Positions 15,223-36,247 of a stretch of DNA of 64,000 nucleotides are shown here, in pieces. Origin of the DNA: an uncultured Acidimicrobiaceae bacterium. Its GTDB lineage: Bacteria; Actinomycetota; Acidimicrobiia; Acidimicrobiales; Bog-793. Under the pieces are notes generated by a model. It saw nothing but the letters and a program-made list of their open reading frames with translations. It searched no databases and was not told the DNA's origin. The position numbers and the translations under genes are program-made. The stretch spans positions 1,187,922 to 1,251,921 of the forward strand of contig CAWAVB010000001.1 in assembly GCA_963785415.1 (NCBI GenBank), given 5' to 3'. Positions within the stretch are counted from its first letter, which is position 1. Each line of letters begins with the position of its first letter.

Positions 15223-18200
15223 TCACACCCCCCCACCGCCGTTTGCCGGCATGAGCGCGGCGAGCAACGTCACGAGGTCTGCAGCGACTCGGCGGCCCGC
15301 CACGAGCGGGACGACGAGTTGCGGAGGTTCCTCCTTGAGGATCGCCCGCGGGGCGAGCCGGCTGAGCCGGACCTGCGCCGAGGCCGGGAGCCGGACCGGA
15401 GTGAGGCGGGCGACCGCCTCGCCGACTCGTCCCGGACCGCCCGACCCCGGCCGCACCGCGACGACGGTCGCCTCCGTCACCCCGGTCCGCACGCACTCGG
15501 CGCGCAGGCGCGCGATCTCGAGGAGCGCCTCCGCCGGGGCCGGAAGGGGCCCGTAGCGGTCGAGCCACTCGGCCCCGATGTCGTCGACCTCGGCCACGGC
15601 CCGCACCGCCGCGAGCCGGCGGTACGCCTCGAGGCGGAGGTCCTCCCGGGCGACGTAGCTCGCCGGCAGGTGGGCGTCGAGCGGCACGTCGAGGCGGACC
15701 TCGCTCGGCTGCGGGACCTCCTCGCCTTTCAGCTCGGCGACCGCCTCGGCGACCATGCGGACGTAGAGGTCGTAGCCGACCGCGGCGATGTGCCCGGACT
15801 GGTCCGTGCCCAGAAGGCTGCCCGCGCCGCGGATCTCGAGGTCGCGCATCGCGATCTTGAAGCCCGATCCGAGTTCGGTGTGCTCGCCGATCGTGCGCAG
15901 CCGTTCGTAGGCCTGCTCGGAAAGGACGCAGTCGGCCGGGTGGAACAGGTAGGCGTACGCCCGCGACGACGAGCGACCGACCCGGCCGCGCAGTTGGTGG
16001 AGCTGGCCCAGGCCCAACAGGTCGGCCCGGTCGACGACGAGGGTGTTCACCGCCGGCATGTCGATCCCGGACTCGATGATCGTCGTGCAGACGAGCACGT
16101 CGTAGCGTCCTTCGGCGAAGTCGACGACGGTCCGCTCGAGGCTCGCCTCGTCCATCTGGCCGTGGGCGATCGCGACGCGCGCCTCGGGCGCGAGGGCGGC
16201 GACGCGGGCCGCCACCGCCTCGATGCCCTCGACGCGGTTGTGCACGAAAAAGACCTGTCCCTCGCGTAGTAGCTCGCGGCGGATCGCCTCGGCGACGGCG
16301 CGGTCGTCCTCCTCGCCGACGTAGGTGAGGATCGGCTGGCGTTCGGCCGGGGGGGTGTCGATGACGGAGAGGTCCCGGATCCCCGTGAGGCCCATCTCGA
16401 GAGTGCGCGGGATCGGGTTCGCCGTGAGCGTGAGAGCGTCGACGCCGATCGCCAGCTTCTTGATCGCCTCTTTCTGGTTCACGCCGAAGCGCTGCTCCTC
16501 GTCGACGACGAGCAGACCGAGCTTCCGGAACTTGACGTCGTCGGTGAGGAGCCGGTGGGTCCCGACGACGACATCGACCGAGCCGGAGGCGATCCCCCGG
16601 ACGACGGCTGCGGCCTCGGCGGCCGTGAGGAACCGGGAGAGCATCTCGACCCGCACCGGGTAGGGCGCGAAACGGTCGGCGAACGTCTGGAAATGCTGCC
16701 GGGCGAGGATCGTCGTCGGCACGAGGATGGCGACCTGTGTGCCGTCCTGGACCGCCTTGAAGGCGGCCCGCACCGCGATCTCGGTCTTGCCGAACCCGAC
16801 GTCGCCGCAGACGAGGCGGTCCATCGGCACGGGACGCTCCATGTCCGCCTTCACCTCGGCGGCGGCGCGCAACTGGTCGGCGGTCTCGGGATAGGGGAAG
16901 GACTGCTCGAGCTCGGCCTGCCAGGGGGTGTCGGGGGAGAAGGCGTGGCCCGGCGAGGCGAGGCGGCGGCGGTACAGGACGACGAGCTCCTGGGCGACGG
17001 CGCGCACCGCCTGGCGGACGCGGGAGCGCTGCCGTCGCCAGTCGTTGCCGTTCAGCCGGTTGAGCGTCGGGTGCTCGCCGCCCGTGTACGGCGTGATGGC
17101 GTCGATCTGGTCCGAGGGGACGTAGAGCCGGTCCCCGCCCCGGTACTCGAGGAGGAGATAGTCGCGTTCGGTGCCCGCGACGCCGCGGCGCACCATGCCG
17201 CCGTAGCGGGCGACGCCGTGGACGTGGTGGACGACGAAGCTGCCGACGGCGAGGTCGTCGAAGAACCCCTCGACGGGACGGGCGCGCGCCCGGGGCACAC
17301 GGTGCGGGCGGTGCCGCCCGGTGAGATCGCTCTCGGCGAGCACGGCGACGCGCGCGGCGTCGAGCACGAAGCCCCGGTCGAGCGACGCCACGACGACGTG
17401 CGTCCCAGGCTCCCGCAACGCCCGGATGCGCCCACCTTGTCCGGCGGGAGCCGCGAGGAACCGGTCGACGTTGACTCCGGCCTCGTCGAGCACGTCGGCG
17501 ATCCGGGCGGCGCTGCCGGCCCCCTCGGCGGCGACGACGACGGCCGTGCCCGCCCGCGTGAGCTCGCCGATCCGGCGGGCGAGGGGCGCCGCGTCACCGA
17601 GCGCCTGGGGCCAGCCAGCCACGCGGATCGTCGGGGTCTGCGGCCCCTCCGCCGTCGCCAGCAGTGACGCGACCCGCGCCGGGGTCCTCGCGAGCAGCCG
17701 GTCGAAACCGAGGTGCAACGCCGGGAAGATCGCCGCCGCCTGCGCCGCCGGCGAGTCCTTCGCCCGCCAGGTCTCGGCGAGCGACGCCGCGAGCGTCGCC
17801 TCTTCGTCGAGGATCTCGACGGCCCGGTCCCGCATCCGCCGGGGCTCGATGAGCACGATCCGGTCGGTCGGGCCGAGCAGGTCGGTGACCAGGCCTCCGG
17901 CCCCGTCGAGCCACGGCAGGAAGGACTCGAGGCCGTCGAAAACCTCACCTTCCGCGATGCGGGCGAACTGCTCGCGGGCGAACGGCGCCTTCCGGGCGAG
18001 CTCGGCCGCGACCTTGCGGCGCTCGTCAGTGACCAGGAGCTCCCGGCAGCCGAAGACCTCGACCGAATCGAGGTCGCGCACGCTGCGCTGGTCGACAACG
18101 TCGAAGACCGTGAGCCGCTCCACGAGATCTCCGTAGCAGTCGACGCGCACGCCGTTGTCCGAGGTCGACGGGAACAGGTCGACGATGCCTCCGCGCACGG

Positions 18201-18753
18201 CGACCTCGCCCCGGTGCTCGACCTGGTATTCCCGGCGGTATCCCGCGGCGACGAGGTGCGCGACGAGCCCCGTGGGATCGATCTCGCCCCCTTGACGGAT
18301 GACGAGCGGTGCAGCATCGGAGGAGGTCGCCGCCAGCCGCTGCAGGAGCGCCCGGACGGGCGCGACGACGACCAACGTCTCGGGCCGGTCCCCACCCTCC
18401 GGGCCGTGGCCGGCGTGCGCCCGGTCGATACGCCAGATCGTCCGCAGACGGCTGCCCATGGTCTCCTCGGCGGGCGAGACCCGTTCGAAAGGCAGTGTCT
18501 CCCAGGCGGGCATCACGGCGACGCTGGCGGGGTCGTAGAAGGCCCCGAGATCGTGGGCGATCCGGTCGGCCTCGACGCCGGTCGGCGTCCCGACAAGTAC
18601 AACGGGCGCGACACCGAGTGCAGCGACCCCCGCCAGCACGAACGGACGGGCGGGGTCGGCGACCGCGATGGCGGTGTCCCCCACGCTGAGCAGTTCGGCG
18701 AGCGCCGGCTCGGTGGCAAGCGCGCCGACGAGCGACGAGAGCGGAGCGGTCAT
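15223..18753 (-). CDS. mfd: Transcription-repair coupling factor Mfd
   Basis: 1176 aa with GDVGFGKTEIAVRAAF (Walker A), VVDEEQRFG, the helicase C-terminal motif QLHQLRGRVGR, and a CarD/TRCF domain. Confidence 0.95.
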   Translation of the reverse strand: MTAPLSSLVGALATEPALAELLSVGDTAIAVADPARPFVLAGVAALGVAPVVLVGTPTGVEADRIAHDLGAFYDPASVAVMPAWETLPFERVSPAEETMGSRLRTIWRIDRAHAGHGPEGGDRPETLVVVAPVRALLQRLAATSSDAAPLVIRQGGEIDPTGLVAHLVAAGYRREYQVEHRGEVAVRGGIVDLFPSTSDNGVRVDCYGDLVERLTVFDVVDQRSVRDLDSVEVFGCRELLVTDERRKVAAELARKAPFAREQFARIAEGEVFDGLESFLPWLDGAGGLVTDLLGPTDRIVLIEPRRMRDRAVEILDEEATLAASLAETWRAKDSPAAQAAAIFPALHLGFDRLLARTPARVASLLATAEGPQTPTIRVAGWPQALGDAAPLARRIGELTRAGTAVVVAAEGAGSAARIADVLDEAGVNVDRFLAAPAGQGGRIRALREPGTHVVVASLDRGFVLDAARVAVLAESDLTGRHRPHRVPRARARPVEGFFDDLAVGSFVVHHVHGVARYGGMVRRGVAGTERDYLLLEYRGGDRLYVPSDQIDAITPYTGGEHPTLNRLNGNDWRRQRSRVRQAVRAVAQELVVLYRRRLASPGHAFSPDTPWQAELEQSFPYPETADQLRAAAEVKADMERPVPMDRLVCGDVGFGKTEIAVRAAFKAVQDGTQVAILVPTTILARQHFQTFADRFAPYPVRVEMLSRFLTAAEAAAVVRGIASGSVDVVVGTHRLLTDDVKFRKLGLLVVDEEQRFGVNQKEAIKKLAIGVDALTLTANPIPRTLEMGLTGIRDLSVIDTPPAERQPILTYVGEEDDRAVAEAIRRELLREGQVFFVHNRVEGIEAVAARVAALAPEARVAIAHGQMDEASLERTVVDFAEGRYDVLVCTTIIESGIDMPAVNTLVVDRADLLGLGQLHQLRGRVGRSSSRAYAYLFHPADCVLSEQAYERLRTIGEHTELGSGFKIAMRDLEIRGAGSLLGTDQSGHIAAVGYDLYVRMVAEAVAELKGEEVPQPSEVRLDVPLDAHLPASYVAREDLRLEAYRRLAAVRAVAEVDDIGAEWLDRYGPLPAPAEALLEIARLRAECVRTGVTEATVVAVRPGSGGPGRVGEAVARLTPVRLPASAQVRLSRLAPRAILKEEPPQLVVPLVAGRRVAADLVTLLAALMPANGGGGV

Positions 18754-22548: not shown

Positions 22549-24009
22549 TTGAGCACCTGCGATTTGTCGGCGATCGGCCCGTTCGTCGAACGGCACTGGG
22601 AGGACGACGCGCTCGCCACGCTGTCCGAGTACATCGCGATCCCGTGCCTTTCGCCTGAGTTCGACGACAACTGGGCGTCAAACGGGGCGATCGACCAGGC
22701 CGCGGAGCTCCTGCGGACGTGGGCCGGCCGGCGGGCACTCGCCCGCTGCACGGCCGAGGTCGTGCGGCTGCCCGGCCGGACGCCATGCCTTCTCGTCGAT
22801 GCCGGATCGACCGCTGACGGTCCTGCACCGACGACGCTCGTCTACGGCCATCTCGACAAGCAGCCTCCGCTCGGCGCGTGGCGGGAGGGCCTCGACCCGT
22901 TCCGGGCGGTGCGACAGGGCAACCACCTCTACGGCCGGGGAAGCGCCGATGACGGCTACGCGGTGTTCGCTGCGCTCGGGGCGCTCGAGGCCCTGGAGGC
23001 GGTGGGCGCGCCCCACGGGCGCGTCGTCGTGCTCATCGAGGCGAGCGAGGAGAGCGGCAGCTCCGACCTCGATGCGATGCTCGACACGCTCGCCGATCGG
23101 ATCGGGCCCCTGGCGCTCGTCGTCAGCCTCGATTCGGGTTGCATTAGCTACGACCGCCTCTGGGTCACGACATCGCTACGCGGCACGATCAACGCCGTCC
23201 TGCGGGTCGGCGTCATGACCGAAGGGGTCCACAGCGGTCTGGCGGGCGGTGTCGTCCCGTCGTCGTTCCGCGTCCTGCGCGAGCTTCTCGACCGCGTCGA
23301 GGACGCCTCGACCGGTGACGTGCTCATCCCGGGTTGCCAAGTCGAGATCCCGGCCCGACGACGCCGCGAGATCGACACGGTCGCCACCGAGTTCGGCGAC
23401 GCGGCCGCGGGAGACTTCCCCCTCTTGCCGGGCGTGGAGCTCGAGGGCACGGACGCGCCGTCACGCCTCGTCCGCCAGATCTGGCGGGCGTCGCTCGAGG
23501 TCACCGGCGCGGAAGGGTTCCCGCCCATCGAGTCCGCCGGAAACGTGCTCCGCCCGTCGAGTGCGGTGAAGGTTTCGCTGCGGATCCCGCCGACCGCCGA
23601 CGCTGCTGCGGTGGCCGAGGCGCTGCGCGTGGCGATCACGCGCGACCCTCCGTCGGGTGCCGTCATCTCCCTCGAGATCCAGCAGGCGTCCTCGGGCTGG
23701 GACGCCCCCGAACTGCCGGCCTGGCTCGATGCCGCGATCGAGGAATCCTCGGTTCGATCCTTCGCCAACCCACCACGCTCGTTCGGGATGGGCGGCTCGA
23801 TCCCGTTCGTGACTTCGATCGCGCGCCGCTACCCGGCGGCCCAGGTCGTGACGACCGGGGTGCTCGGTCCGGGTTCGAACGCGCACGTCCCCGACGAGTG
23901 CCTCCACCTCCCGACGGCCAAGGCGGTGACGTCCTGCACCGCCCACCTCATCGCCGCGCTCGCCGCGGCGAGCGCGGCGCACGCCCCTCCGCCCCGGTCG
24001 GGGGAGTGA
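22549..24009 (+). CDS. M20-family metallopeptidase (dipeptidase-like)
   Basis: TTG start after GGGAGGTG. The sequence carries YGHLDKQPP, LYGRGSADDGYAVFAAL and EASEESGS metal-ligand motifs. Confidence 0.85.
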   Translation: MSTCDLSAIGPFVERHWEDDALATLSEYIAIPCLSPEFDDNWASNGAIDQAAELLRTWAGRRALARCTAEVVRLPGRTPCLLVDAGSTADGPAPTTLVYGHLDKQPPLGAWREGLDPFRAVRQGNHLYGRGSADDGYAVFAALGALEALEAVGAPHGRVVVLIEASEESGSSDLDAMLDTLADRIGPLALVVSLDSGCISYDRLWVTTSLRGTINAVLRVGVMTEGVHSGLAGGVVPSSFRVLRELLDRVEDASTGDVLIPGCQVEIPARRRREIDTVATEFGDAAAGDFPLLPGVELEGTDAPSRLVRQIWRASLEVTGAEGFPPIESAGNVLRPSSAVKVSLRIPPTADAAAVAEALRVAITRDPPSGAVISLEIQQASSGWDAPELPAWLDAAIEESSVRSFANPPRSFGMGGSIPFVTSIARRYPAAQVVTTGVLGPGSNAHVPDECLHLPTAKAVTSCTAHLIAALAAASAAHAPPPRSGE

Positions 24010-24024: not shown

Positions 24025-25032
24025 CTACGGGCGGACCGGGCCCTCTCCGGCGCCGGTCCGGCTGACCGCGGCGGCGATCTCCGCGAGGTCCGCATCGTCG
24101 AGCGGGAGGTCCGCCGCGGCCGACCACCCGTCGACCTGGGACGGGCTGCGCGCCCCGACGATCGCGCCCGTGACCCCCGGCGTCGCCAGCGTCCAGGCGA
24201 CGGCGACGGCGCCGACCGAGACGCGGTACCGCTCGGCGATCGGCCGCAGCGCGTCGGCGAGGGCGAGGTTCTTCGCGAGTTCCGCCCCGGAGAAATCCGG
24301 GCTCGTCCGGCGCCAGTCCTCCGGGTCGAGTGCTGCAGCACGCGCCTCGCTGAACGTCCCGGAGAGCAGTCCCGCCTGCATCGGGCTGTAGACGATGACC
24401 CCGGTCCCGTGGGCGGCGCACCACGGGATCACATCCCCGCCGGCGCGGCGCTTGACGAGCGAGTACGGCGGCTGGACCGAGTCGACGTGGCCGAGCGCCT
24501 CCGCGGCGTCGAGCAGGTCGACCCCGTGGTTCGAGAGTCCCGCCGCGGCGATCAGGCCCTTGTCCCGCAGGTCGAGGAAGACGTCCCAGTAGGCCTCGAG
24601 CGGGGTCCCGTCCGCCGCCGGCCAGTGCATCTGGTAGAGGTCGATGCGCTCGACCCGCAGCCGGCGCAGACTCGCCTCGACCTCACGCCGCAGGCTCGTC
24701 GGGTCCCCGACGTGGCCCGGCGTGAGCATCGGGTTGTCCGGGTCGACGATCGTTCCGCCCTTGGTGAAGACGTACGGTCGGTCGGCCGGAGCGAATCCCC
24801 CGAGCGCCGCGGCGACGACCTCCTCCGCGTGGCCGATGCCGTAGGCCGCGGCGGTGTCGATCCAGTTGATCCCGAGCTCGACCGCGTGGCGGATCGCCGC
24901 GATCGAGTCCGCGTCGTCCTGGTCGCCCCAGCCGAACCGCCAGCTCCCACCTCCGACCGCCCAGGAGCCATACCCGACCCGGGTGATCTCCATGCCGGTC
25001 TTGCCCAAAGCCCGCGTCGGAAGCAGCGCCAT
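24025..25032 (-). CDS. Aldo/keto reductase
   Basis: 335 aa with GYGSWAVGG, INWIDTAAAYGIGHAEE and LYQMHWP patterns of the AKR family. Confidence 0.9.
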   Translation of the reverse strand: MALLPTRALGKTGMEITRVGYGSWAVGGGSWRFGWGDQDDADSIAAIRHAVELGINWIDTAAAYGIGHAEEVVAAALGGFAPADRPYVFTKGGTIVDPDNPMLTPGHVGDPTSLRREVEASLRRLRVERIDLYQMHWPAADGTPLEAYWDVFLDLRDKGLIAAAGLSNHGVDLLDAAEALGHVDSVQPPYSLVKRRAGGDVIPWCAAHGTGVIVYSPMQAGLLSGTFSEARAAALDPEDWRRTSPDFSGAELAKNLALADALRPIAERYRVSVGAVAVAWTLATPGVTGAIVGARSPSQVDGWSAAADLPLDDADLAEIAAAVSRTGAGEGPVRP

Positions 25033-31928: not shown

Positions 31929-32384
31929 CTATGAGGTCTTCGCGCCCTGCATCTTCTTGACGAACGGCATGACGTACGGAGCGACCGCGACGATCGCCGC
32001 GATCAGGGCGACGAACGCCCCATAGCGCCAACCGACACCCGAGCCACCCGGCTTGAGCAAGAAGCCGATCAGCACGAGGAGGAAGTTGATCCCAGTCGCA
32101 CCGAAAAAGAGCATGTCTTCGGCGAACGGCAACTTGAACGGCATCTCGTCGAAGCTCGCCTTAATCACCAGGTAGATGAGGATTAGGAGGCACAGAATCA
32201 AGTCGATGTAGAGGTACCCGTGCGCCGAGAGTCCGGAAACCGTGGCGCTGACGCTGTAGACGCCGAAGGTCGCGCTCACTCCGAACCAGTCGAGGAACAG
32301 CGAAATAAACAACACAAAGGTTGCGATCCCGACGATGCGGTCGACCTTTGTCCATCGGGCGACATCAAATTTCACTTCGGCCAT
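31929..32384 (-). CDS. Small integral membrane protein, unknown function
   Basis: 151 aa with 4-5 hydrophobic segments. GC is visibly lower than in neighbouring genes. Confidence 0.6.
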   Translation of the reverse strand: MAEVKFDVARWTKVDRIVGIATFVLFISLFLDWFGVSATFGVYSVSATVSGLSAHGYLYIDLILCLLILIYLVIKASFDEMPFKLPFAEDMLFFGATGINFLLVLIGFLLKPGGSGVGWRYGAFVALIAAIVAVAPYVMPFVKKMQGAKTS

Positions 32385-32643
32385 CAGGCCCCCTTGTCAA
32401 TCAGACGACCCTCCCCCGCGCGTTCGTTGCACAGGGTGCGACCGAACCGTACACGCGATCGAACCCGACGCGCCGGGATCCTCCGGCTCCCCTGAACCGG
32501 CTCTGTCCTCCTCGTCGCGGTCACGGCTGCCCGACCGCGACCGGGCGGACCGACCTCCCTGGATCCCGGCCGTCCGAGGATGGTCGGCCGAGGTCAGGGG
32601 CTCTTTCTCGCCGGCGGCAGCGACTGCGCACGATCTCCTCTTG

Positions 32644-32677
32644 CGCGCGCTATCGAACAGGTGTTCGATAGCGCGCG
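32644..32677. promoter_or_regulatory. 34-bp perfect palindrome containing an actinobacterial LexA (SOS) box, TCGAAC-AGGT-GTTCGA
   Basis: cgcgcgctatcgaaca-gg-tgttcgatagcgcgcg has 16-bp perfect arms. The core at 32653-32668 equals the mycobacterial consensus TCGAAC-N4-GTTCGA. It lies about 20 nt upstream of the AAAGGAG RBS of the 32699 ORF. Confidence 0.7.
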
Positions 32678-32698
32678 ACGGACCGAAAGGAGTCGGCA

Positions 32699-32923
32699 AT
32701 GGGAGTGATGCGAATACTGGACAGCAGCGGCGACGCCAAGGTCGTCTGGGACGTGCGCGACGACGAGGCCCTCGCTCGGGCGGCGAAGATCTTCGATGGG
32801 CTCGCCGCCGAGGGTGAGATCGCCTACGAGCGGAATGGCCCGCAGACCGTGGCCTCACGCGTCAACGCGTTCAACCCGGACGCGGACGAGATCATCTGGG
32901 TGCGCCCCCTCCAGGGCGGATGA
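32699..32923 (+). CDS. Small (74 aa) soluble hypothetical protein, predicted SOS-regulated
   Basis: ATG is preceded by AAAGGAG. Composition is balanced (MGVMRILDSSGDAKVVWDVRDDEALARAAKIFDGL...) and third-position GC is high. I recognise no family. Confidence 0.6.
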   Translation: MGVMRILDSSGDAKVVWDVRDDEALARAAKIFDGLAAEGEIAYERNGPQTVASRVNAFNPDADEIIWVRPLQGG

Positions 32924-34864: not shown

Positions 34865-35245
34865 GTGCACGTCCGCGACGAATTCGCCATCAAGTACGGC
34901 GCGTTCCGGCTGCTGCTTTCCGTGCTGGGCCTCGGTCCCCGCTTCTCCCGCGTCGTCGTCGACGCCGACCGCCTCATCGTGAAGATGGGCTGGGGGTTCT
35001 CGGCTGACGTCCCCCGGTCCGCGATCGCGTCGGCGCAGCGAAGCCGGGGACCGGTCGGCGGGATCGGCGTGCACGGATGGCGCGGTCGCTGGCTCGTCAA
35101 CGGGGCCGCCTCCGGACTGGTGATTATTCGATTTGATCCTCGCCGACGGGCCCGGGTCATGGGCCTACCTGTCGCGCTCGCCGACCTGTGCATCTCGCTC
35201 GAGGAACCGGACCGGTTCGTCGCAAAGACCGCACCGGGCACCTAG
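34865..35245 (+). CDS. Hypothetical protein
   Basis: 126 aa, GTG start, very high third-position GC, no recognisable motif. Confidence 0.5.
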   Translation: MHVRDEFAIKYGAFRLLLSVLGLGPRFSRVVVDADRLIVKMGWGFSADVPRSAIASAQRSRGPVGGIGVHGWRGRWLVNGAASGLVIIRFDPRRRARVMGLPVALADLCISLEEPDRFVAKTAPGT

Positions 35246-35404: not shown

Positions 35405-36247
35405 ATGGCCTGGCACGTCACCGAGTCAATCGACCTCTACACCGAGCACGTCTGGGATCTCCTGACGAGTCGAGCCGACCTCAACACGGTCGCGCTCACC
35501 CAGATCACCAGCGCCCGAACCGAGACGTTCTGGTCGAGCGACGAGCCGACATTCGCCTGGTGGAGTCACGGCGGCCGGACGCTCGGGGCCGTCTCGCTCA
35601 CGCCCCCCTACGAGATGCTGTTGAACGTCGTGCCGGACGGGACGCTCGAGGAGCTCGTCGCCGTCTTGCATCGCAATGGGACGTCGGTGCCCGGCGTGAA
35701 CGGCGTTCCCGACACGGCGAGCCGATTCGCCGAGCTATGGACCGCCGGCACCTCCCTGCCGACCGTGCTCACGCGGCGGATGCGCCTCTACGGCACGGCG
35801 CGCATCGTCGCCCCGGAACCGGCCCCGGCGGGTCGCGCCCGGCTGGCCCGCGAGGACGAGATCGACCTCATCGTCGACTGGTACGGGGCGTTCGGCCGGG
35901 AGCTGCACGACCGGCCGATCGACGCGCGCCCGTTCGTGCGGGAACGGGTCGCGGCCGGACTCGCCTGGCTCTGGGAGGACGCGGACGGCACGCCCGCGTC
36001 GCTCGCGGCGCGCCATCAGCCCGCCGCCGGCGTCTCACGGATCGGACCCGTCTACACACCACTGCAGCATCGCCGGTTCGGGTACGGCGCGGCGGCCACC
36101 GCGTCGTGCTCCCAGCACGCGCTCGACACGGACTCGGCGTCGACGGTCCTTTTCACCGACCTCGACAACCCGACTTCGAACGACATCTATCAGAAGATTG
36201 GCTACGCACCGCTTGAGGACCGGCTCGTCCTGAGCTTCGAGGCATAG
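35405..36247 (+). CDS. GNAT-family acetyltransferase (two-lobed)
   Basis: The C-terminal VYTPLQHRRFGYGAAATASCSQHAL...VLFTDLDNPTSNDIYQKIGY matches the acetyl-CoA-binding motif A. Confidence 0.7.
   Translation: MAWHVTESIDLYTEHVWDLLTSRADLNTVALTQITSARTETFWSSDEPTFAWWSHGGRTLGAVSLTPPYEMLLNVVPDGTLEELVAVLHRNGTSVPGVNGVPDTASRFAELWTAGTSLPTVLTRRMRLYGTARIVAPEPAPAGRARLAREDEIDLIVDWYGAFGRELHDRPIDARPFVRERVAAGLAWLWEDADGTPASLAARHQPAAGVSRIGPVYTPLQHRRFGYGAAATASCSQHALDTDSASTVLFTDLDNPTSNDIYQKIGYAPLEDRLVLSFEA

Follow-up and report, generated by a model that had tools for sequence, protein, structure and literature searches.

The palindrome described here lies in a 64-kb stretch of genomic DNA (here called the window; 71% GC) from an uncultured Acidimicrobiaceae bacterium, on contig CAWAVB010000001.1. 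The window shares approximately 96% nucleotide identity with JBEKCO010000040.1, a record titled "MAG: Acidimicrobiales bacterium isolate SPRUCE 161" (MAG, metagenome-assembled genome). A divergent spacer of 314 bp separates a hydrophobic 151-aa open reading frame (ORF; 31929-32384, minus strand) from a 74-aa ORF on the plus strand, and this spacer contains a perfect 34-bp palindrome whose core is a candidate operator for the SOS repressor LexA. The 74-aa ORF encodes a predicted ubiquitin-like protein (Ubl) and is followed in its operon by one further gene, whose product we refer to as the partner. The coordinates of these features, including the ribosome-binding site (RBS) of the Ubl gene, are collected in Table 1.

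Table 1. Features of the palindrome, its promoter region and the two-gene operon, together with related sister operons. Coordinates refer to the window unless a locus is named.
Feature	Coordinates	Strand	Remarks
-35-like hexamer TTGCGC	32641-32646	+	TTGAC[AGCT] in more distant relatives; putative promoter element
Perfect 34-bp palindrome	32644-32677	none	Core box plus GC-rich arm extension, CGCGCGCT and AGCGCGCG
SOS box TCGAAC-AGGT-GTTCGA (TCGAACAGGTGTTCGA)	32653-32668	none	Putative LexA operator
RBS GAAAGGAG of the Ubl gene	32685-32692	+	Kept as (G)AAAGGAG or AAGGGAG, 6-8 nt before the ATG
Ubl gene, 74 aa, predicted beta-grasp	32699-32923	+	Ends ...EIIWVRPLQGG, then stop
Partner gene, 215 aa	32925-33572	+	TTG start 1 nt after the Ubl stop; translationally coupled
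Sister operons, Ubl plus DnaB_C fusion	L049 97-1754; L050 5065-6663; L051 5758-7368		

The palindrome reads CGCGCGCTATCGAACA-GG-TGTTCGATAGCGCGCG. An inverted-repeat search returned two arms of 16 nt each (32644-32659 and 32662-32677) that are 100% complementary around a 2-nt GG centre. Within the window, TCGAAC-N4-GTTCGA has a single match without mismatches, located in the centre of the palindrome, compared to a mean of 0.01 in dinucleotide-preserving shuffles of the window. When up to two mismatches are allowed, the number of matches rises to 12 (4.6 expected), and the remaining 11 all carry two mismatches. A first-pass annotation of this DNA, made from the letters alone, had described a perfect 34-bp palindrome with an exact actinobacterial SOS box, and both the inverted-repeat search and the uniqueness of the exact core agree with that description. 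The 16-bp box ends 16 nt from the RBS and 30 nt from the ATG, and the conserved core reaches 18 nt (ATCGAACAGGTGTTCGAT, 32652-32669).

The box is conserved wherever we encountered the operon. Approximately 35 Acidimicrobiia loci hold the gene pair. In nine fetched syntenic relatives, with Ubls 68 to 74% identical to that of the window, the 18-mer is unchanged and lies approximately 30 nt before the ATG; outside the 18-mer, the spacer has diverged. A footprint alignment of 11 loci contains only three invariant blocks, namely CTTG of the -35 region, CGAAC..GTGTTCGAT and the start codon, and the RBS is almost invariant as well. Scanning one genome per GTDB species with a profile of the partner yielded 27 loci, all of them from Acidimicrobiia and including the complete 54%-GC freshwater genome IMCC26256. 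A CGAAC-N4-GTTCG box with zero or one mismatch is present upstream in every locus, including all 28 species-level loci that we tabulated. Across these 28 loci, the half-site positions (C1 G2 A3 A4 C5 and G10 T11 T12 C13 G14) are 86 to 100% conserved, and the four spacer positions hold R (22/28), any nucleotide, R (28/28) and T (28/28), which gives the pattern RnRY. The window box fits the consensus exactly, including its AGGT spacer, which obeys RnRY. Conservation of the box in sequence without covariation is as expected of a DNA site bound by a protein rather than of an RNA stem.

The box is also specific to this operon in the DNA that we sampled. The Acidimicrobiia DNA that we fetched, approximately 420 kb, contains 45 exact CGAAC-N4-GTTCG cores, and each of them precedes a Ubl gene; this sample is highly redundant, therefore the count speaks to specificity for the operon and is silent on the size of any regulon. 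A metagenome scan with P0108 returned no relative, and the other metagenome scan returned only more Ubl-partner operons. Two records titled "MAG: Bifidobacterium breve" (L028, CAMDCC010000039.1; L033, CAMDSG010000133.1) carry the Acidimicrobiia operon, and L033 is nearly identical to the IMCC26256 locus (L032); these two records appear to be mislabelled or contaminated.

The same counts bear on whether the palindrome could be one copy of a dispersed element resembling repetitive extragenic palindromes (REP) or miniature inverted-repeat transposable elements (MITE), the first of which the first-pass annotation had named as an alternative. The 34-mer is present once in the window even with up to three mismatches allowed (0 expected), the core is present once in the window and only at the orthologous position in the fetched loci, and throughout a bacterial class it keeps its place relative to the gene. 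We found no positive evidence for a mobile or dispersed repeat, GC-rich palindromes being common in a window of this base composition, and we regard this explanation as having almost no chance of being correct.

In some lineages, additional boxes precede the same operon (L028 3875-3911, L034 12-70, L037, L038, L039 and L043). They take the form of a pair of full boxes separated by 9 nt, of a box accompanied by extra GGTGTTCG half-sites, or of a second box, CGAAC-N4-GTTTG, that abuts the RBS. Tandem boxes occur in L028 and L034, while L037 to L039 and L043 have one box at the promoter and one at the RBS. The presence of extra boxes in tandem or at the RBS suggests selection for tight repression and against leaky expression of the operon.

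The position of the box is fixed relative to a promoter-like element rather than to the gene. In the window, the CGAAC of the box begins 7 nt downstream of the -35-like TTGCGC, and the full box begins after 6 nt. In 26 of the 28 tabulated loci, a TTG[AC] hexamer (TTGAC or TTGCG) precedes the box by 6 to 8 nt; of the other two, L029 has TTGACA 7 nt upstream as judged by eye and L034 has no upstream sequence. The distance from box to start codon varies from 30 to 88 nt in the same 28 loci. We counted the combination of fixed -35-like spacing and variable distance to the start codon in favor of a LexA operator.

A second element, (A/G)ATCCACAGGAT, lies approximately 10 nt upstream of the -35-like hexamer in nine of 11 close orthologous loci (including L017, L018, L022, L015, L020, L021 and L013). 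It is a small inverted repeat, ATCC-N3-GGAT, which is degenerate in the window (GACTGCGCACGAT, approximately 32622-32636), and it could be an UP-like element or the site of another regulator.

Published forms of the LexA consensus include TCGAAC-N4-GTTCGA, CGAACRnRYGTTYC and tCGAAC-N4-GNNCGa (PMC2248561, PMC9380542), and the second of these is the Gram-positive and actinobacterial consensus (PMC2248561). The window site matches the Mycobacterium tuberculosis recA box TCGAACAGGTGTTCGG at 15 of 16 positions, has the A...T flanks of the perfect dnaE2 box of that species (ATCGAACAATTGTTCGAT; ATCGAAC..GTTCGAT), and fits the ChIP-derived motif of Streptomyces venezuelae, the third form above. The LexA motif is common to Firmicutes and other Actinobacteria (PMC2248561); given that these groups bracket the Acidimicrobiia, the LexA of Acidimicrobiia most likely keeps this motif. 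LexA and RecA have been reported in marine Acidimicrobiales genomes (PMC10205998). The first-pass annotation had read the core as a LexA operator upstream of the small ORF and the locus as a stand-alone SOS-regulated one. Retention of the box in all loci, its fixed spacing from the -35-like hexamer and its RnRY spacer strongly support that view, and we assign a probability of about 0.8 to the reading that the core of the palindrome is a LexA operator overlapping the promoter of the two-gene operon.

Four points weigh against this reading. First, recognition of this motif by the LexA of Acidimicrobiia is presumed. Second, tblastn at E ≤ 1 with Escherichia coli RecA and LexA and M. tuberculosis LexA found nothing credible for recA or lexA in the window or in 51 fetched loci, and no other SOS gene lies in any of these sequences. 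Third, the window-type promoter has no canonical -10 (TAnnnT) at 16 to 18 nt from the -35-like hexamer. A consensus scanner reported no canonical sigma-70 promoter at the window box, and at 17 nt from the -35-like element the sequence reads TTCGAT; because no canonical -10 can be placed, the promoter assignment in the window is tentative. Fourth, all boxes are tied to one operon, a pattern that also fits a regulator specific to this operon.

Such a regulator would be a dimeric protein other than LexA, for example the Ubl-partner pair acting in autoregulation as in toxin-antitoxin systems, and the SOS likeness of the box would then be convergent. Autoregulation is frequent in two-gene operons whose first product is small, which, along with the confinement of every box in the approximately 420 kb to this operon, we counted in favor of this explanation. 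However, the half-sites, RnRY spacer and flanks are those of LexA-bound M. tuberculosis sites, and the motif belongs to LexA in the groups that bracket the Acidimicrobiia. Neither the Ubl nor the partner has a predicted helix-turn-helix or other DNA-binding fold (Pfam, AlphaFold2 models, Foldseek), and the box persists in a sister operon in which the partner becomes a fusion with a DnaB_C domain (see below). Overall, we consider an operon-specific regulator, the chief alternative to LexA, unlikely.

The arms of the palindrome beyond the box raise the question of whether the 34-bp repeat acts as a structure, either a cruciform or an RNA hairpin in the 5' untranslated region that attenuates or stabilizes the mRNA, with the SOS core being incidental. 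According to the first-pass annotation, the GC-rich extension could contribute a cruciform or RNA hairpin, or supply a site for another regulator. The palindrome is the longest perfect hairpin-type inverted repeat of the window, and as RNA, the window segment forms a 15-bp stem with a free energy of -31.5 kcal/mol (z = -6.7). However, the 16-bp perfect arms are present only in the window and in its approximately 96%-identical relative L016; arms in the other species are 0 to 8 bp long, and five orthologues folded as RNA gave z-scores of +0.45 to -1.55, no better than shuffles. The half-sites are kept in sequence with no compensatory changes, and there is no T-tract or terminator-like site at the palindrome. 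In addition, a transcription start downstream of the -10 would be expected to leave most of the left arm untranscribed. The suggested roles for the extension are thus not supported, given that it is limited in species and that the orthologous hairpins are at shuffle level, and we judge it very unlikely that the palindrome acts as a structure.

Comparison with the nearest relatives indicates how the long arms could have formed. The right flank, AGCGCGCG, is common to L006, L011, L015 and L018, and only a 1-nt deletion plus two or three substitutions separate the left flank from that of L015; few changes in a CG-rich flank would therefore suffice to produce the long palindrome. Template-switch correction of quasi-palindromes is a known mutational mechanism. 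The long palindrome plausibly arose by drift, by template-switch perfecting of a quasi-palindrome in the CG-rich flank, or by both, and the arm extension is lineage specific and probably without function. Elsewhere in the window, a perfect 28-bp GC-rich palindrome (CGCCGCGCTCGCCGCGGCGAGCGCGGCG, 23952-23979) is located at the 3' end of an M20-peptidase ORF (22549-24009, plus strand) that is convergent with an aldo-keto reductase gene (24025-25032, minus strand). It may be a bidirectional terminator-like hairpin.

The first-pass annotation had listed the first gene of the operon as an uncharacterised 74-aa ORF. What had been overlooked is that it encodes a conserved, predicted ubiquitin-like protein with a GG end and opens a two-gene operon. 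The AlphaFold2 model of the small protein (predicted local distance difference test score, pLDDT, 82) has a bb-a-bbb topology and a low-confidence C-terminal tail. The top Foldseek matches in the PDB that we inspected are all beta-grasp proteins (Raf-RBD, PB1, SUMO, ISG15 and MoaD), and these matches are weak (E ≥ 0.076, template modelling [TM] score approximately 0.45). The C-terminal pattern of the family is ...EEI[IV]WVRPxxGG with the stop codon directly after, and the GG-stop end is invariant in all intact copies (25 distinct sequences plus L049 to L051 and L043 to L047). The small protein has few homologues, and Acidimicrobiales metagenomes are the source of all of them. The Ubl has no match in Pfam or NCBIfam at E ≤ 0.1 and none in PADLOC, PHROGs or PDB sequence profiles, and hhalign comparisons of the Ubl family with ThiS, MoaD and ubiquitin gave insignificant probabilities of 0.2 to 2.7%.

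The start assigned to the partner is supported by an ATG at the same position in its homologues P0014, P0016 and P0017. A conserved beta-rich region makes up the N-terminal part of the protein; a disordered, Arg-rich linker joins it to a conserved C-terminal domain of approximately 110 aa, which holds the motif DIWTNLLL (in its longer form LPxxDIWTNLLLxL...FFxVAN). Cys153, in the sequence LCVVP, is invariant in 34 homologues. In the AlphaFold2 model, residues 95 to 200 have a pLDDT of approximately 95 and form a helix, a four-strand meander and a second helix, with the Cys after strand 4. The partner has no match in Pfam, NCBIfam, PADLOC, PHROGs or PDB sequence profiles and none among plasmids by tblastn. 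Foldseek searches of the PDB and BFVD returned nothing meaningful, the best viral match having a TM score of 0.41 and a root-mean-square deviation of 14.8. An E2/UBC-like assignment for the C-terminal domain was considered and is not supported; no E2 is among the 50 Foldseek matches listed and the domain has no HPN motif.

In almost every species locus, the Ubl and partner genes are neighbors that either overlap by 4 bp or are separated by no more than 70 nt, and a few loci carry frameshifted ORF calls at the pair. In several metagenome assemblies, frameshifted or merged calls run across the junction or lie inside the partner (L001 4227-6674, P0022, P0011, L020, L021 and L036); for instance, P0022 is a 285-aa "fusion" and L001 has a call of 815 aa. 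Such calls probably reflect errors of assembly or sequencing in the linker, which is GC-rich and Arg-rich, and not true fusions.

An exhaustive search with a hidden Markov model of the partner C-terminal domain retrieved 2,253 representatives at E ≤ 1e-3, all within an unannotated family. Many of the members that we viewed (P0063-P0202, for example P0165, P0178, P0187, P0199 and P0161) have Thr/Ser-rich N-termini, and many show a coiled-coil linker rich in Glu and Arg, along with C[IV]HP where the partner has LCVVP; P0161 carries two copies of the domain. None of the C-domain family proteins P0063-P0202 has a match in Pfam or PHROGs. In one Acidimicrobiia branch (P0206 is so named), a protein of approximately 450 aa joins the domain to a DnaB_C/RecA-fold P-loop ATPase, which matches Pfam PF03796 with E-values of 1e-7 to 5e-11 and whose best PDB sequence matches are DnaB helicases (3e-4).

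We fetched three contexts of this fusion gene (L049 to L051), and in all three it is preceded by a Ubl homologue of 77 to 78 aa that ends in ITGG-stop. Each of these sister operons has an exact box inside a canonical promoter, TTGACG-N16/17 followed by TACGGT, TAAGGT or TACCGT. The box is thus upstream of the Ubl gene in the sister operon too, indicating that it stays with the Ubl despite the changed architecture of the partner. A DUF8575 gene is near the sister operon in all three loci.

Pfam assignments for approximately 45 window ORFs comprise housekeeping, respiratory and sugar-use genes only. The left part of the window holds a housekeeping block with ppx, eno, mazG, mfd, pth, prs and glmU, followed by transporters. 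Adjoining the operon are an S4/Hsp15-like gene, which is convergent with it, and genes for a CN-hydrolase and a GNAT protein. In the right part are DUF2254, cydAB with cydDC-type ABC genes, genes for Hdr-like Fe-S proteins, GH94 and GH1 sugar genes, and an Opp-type transporter. These assignments, taken with the RecA and LexA searches above, bear out the earlier statement that the window holds no other canonical SOS gene and that the locus stands alone; in addition, a regular-expression search for S24, RecA and Uvr motifs gave no match. The sole DNA-repair gene of the window is mfd (15226-18753, minus strand), which shares its conserved block with pth, prs and glmU, and the window scan found no SOS-like box with fewer than two mismatches near it. 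Downstream of the CN-hydrolase gene are a 126-aa ORF (34865-35245, plus strand) and a 280-aa ORF (35405-36247, plus strand), both of which are syntenic in most close relatives. The 126-aa ORF has no Pfam match, and the 280-aa ORF has none at 1e-5, although the copies in relatives are annotated as FR47/GNAT-like.

If the box is a LexA operator, regulation of the operon would proceed as follows. In undamaged cells, a LexA dimer on TCGAAC-AGGT-GTTCGA would cover the promoter spacer and the -10 region, because the box starts 6 nt after the -35-like TTGCGC, and would thereby block RNA polymerase. Upon DNA damage, RecA filaments on single-stranded DNA would trigger self-cleavage of LexA and derepress the operon, which would then be transcribed with a short leader and a strong RBS, its two cistrons being translated in a coupled manner. 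Both the induction by damage and the roles that we propose for the two proteins are inferred.

Three features suggest a Ubl reaction that is induced by damage and tied to DNA transactions: the GG tail of the Ubl, the invariant Cys of the partner and the fusion to a DnaB/RecA-fold ATPase. In the proposed scheme, the C-terminus of the Ubl would be activated, transferred as a thioester to the invariant Cys and conjugated to targets at stalled forks or lesions; alternatively, the C-terminus might serve as a thiocarboxylate carrier. Pfam tables of the neighborhoods L001 to L015 and L049 to L051 contain no E1-like adenylase, JAB peptidase, E2, MoaE or ThiG. Because no E1, E2 or JAB gene is nearby, we rate this scheme low: an SOS-induced Ubl system of a new kind in Acidimicrobiia, in which a GG-ended beta-grasp protein and a partner with a Cys domain act after release of LexA, is a doubtful proposal.

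Acidimicrobiia, an almost uncultured class, are plentiful in peat, soil, freshwater and the sea. Our literature search returned no LexA regulon for the class, no SOS-regulated Ubl and nothing specific to either. The box would be the first anchored LexA-type site for Acidimicrobiia. The operator itself is an ordinary, textbook SOS box, and the novelty is in the gene pair that it would regulate, which is linked to an SOS box across the class, undescribed, and absent from all protein-family libraries that we searched; the C-terminal domain of the partner defines an unannotated family of more than 2,000 representatives. A damage-inducible bacterial Ubl, if this is what the operon encodes, would constitute a new branch of the SOS response.

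Compared to the SOS boxes of mycobacteria and other actinobacteria (recA, dnaE2 and Rv3074), the site has the same 16-bp dyad, RnRY spacer and A/T flanks and the same location within or beside the promoter spacer; it differs in that its dyad extends to 34 bp in the window. The M. tuberculosis recA promoter repressed by LexA has been represented by the oligonucleotide cTTGAATCGAACAGGTGTTCGGCTACTGT (PMC8607333), and its order of -35, box and -10 equals that of the sister operon. Unlike the mycobacterial and Streptomyces regulons, the box here would govern genes other than repair or mutagenesis genes. To our knowledge, the Ubl and the partner have no homologues in the described LexA regulons of Mycobacterium, Corynebacterium and Streptomyces. 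Accessory SOS modules with double operators under tight LexA repression are familiar from the colicin, tisB and lexA promoters of E. coli, and the Acidimicrobiia lineages with two boxes resemble them. Both proteins are predicted to be soluble, and neither resembles known SOS toxins or division inhibitors.

The Ubl resembles sulfur carriers and protein modifiers of the ThiS/MoaD/ubiquitin type (SAMPs, TtuB, CysO and the Bil/Bub Ubls) in its small size (74 to 78 aa), predicted beta-grasp fold, flexible tail and invariant terminal GG right before the stop codon, and the translational coupling of its gene to that of the partner resembles the moaD-moaE arrangement. It differs from them in lacking sequence membership in these families, and the system differs in that the fold of the partner is unmatched. 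If the proposed Ubl reaction takes place, the operon would be a bacterial, LexA-controlled analogue of damage-induced ubiquitin and SUMO signalling that operates without a recognizable E1/E2/JAB set.

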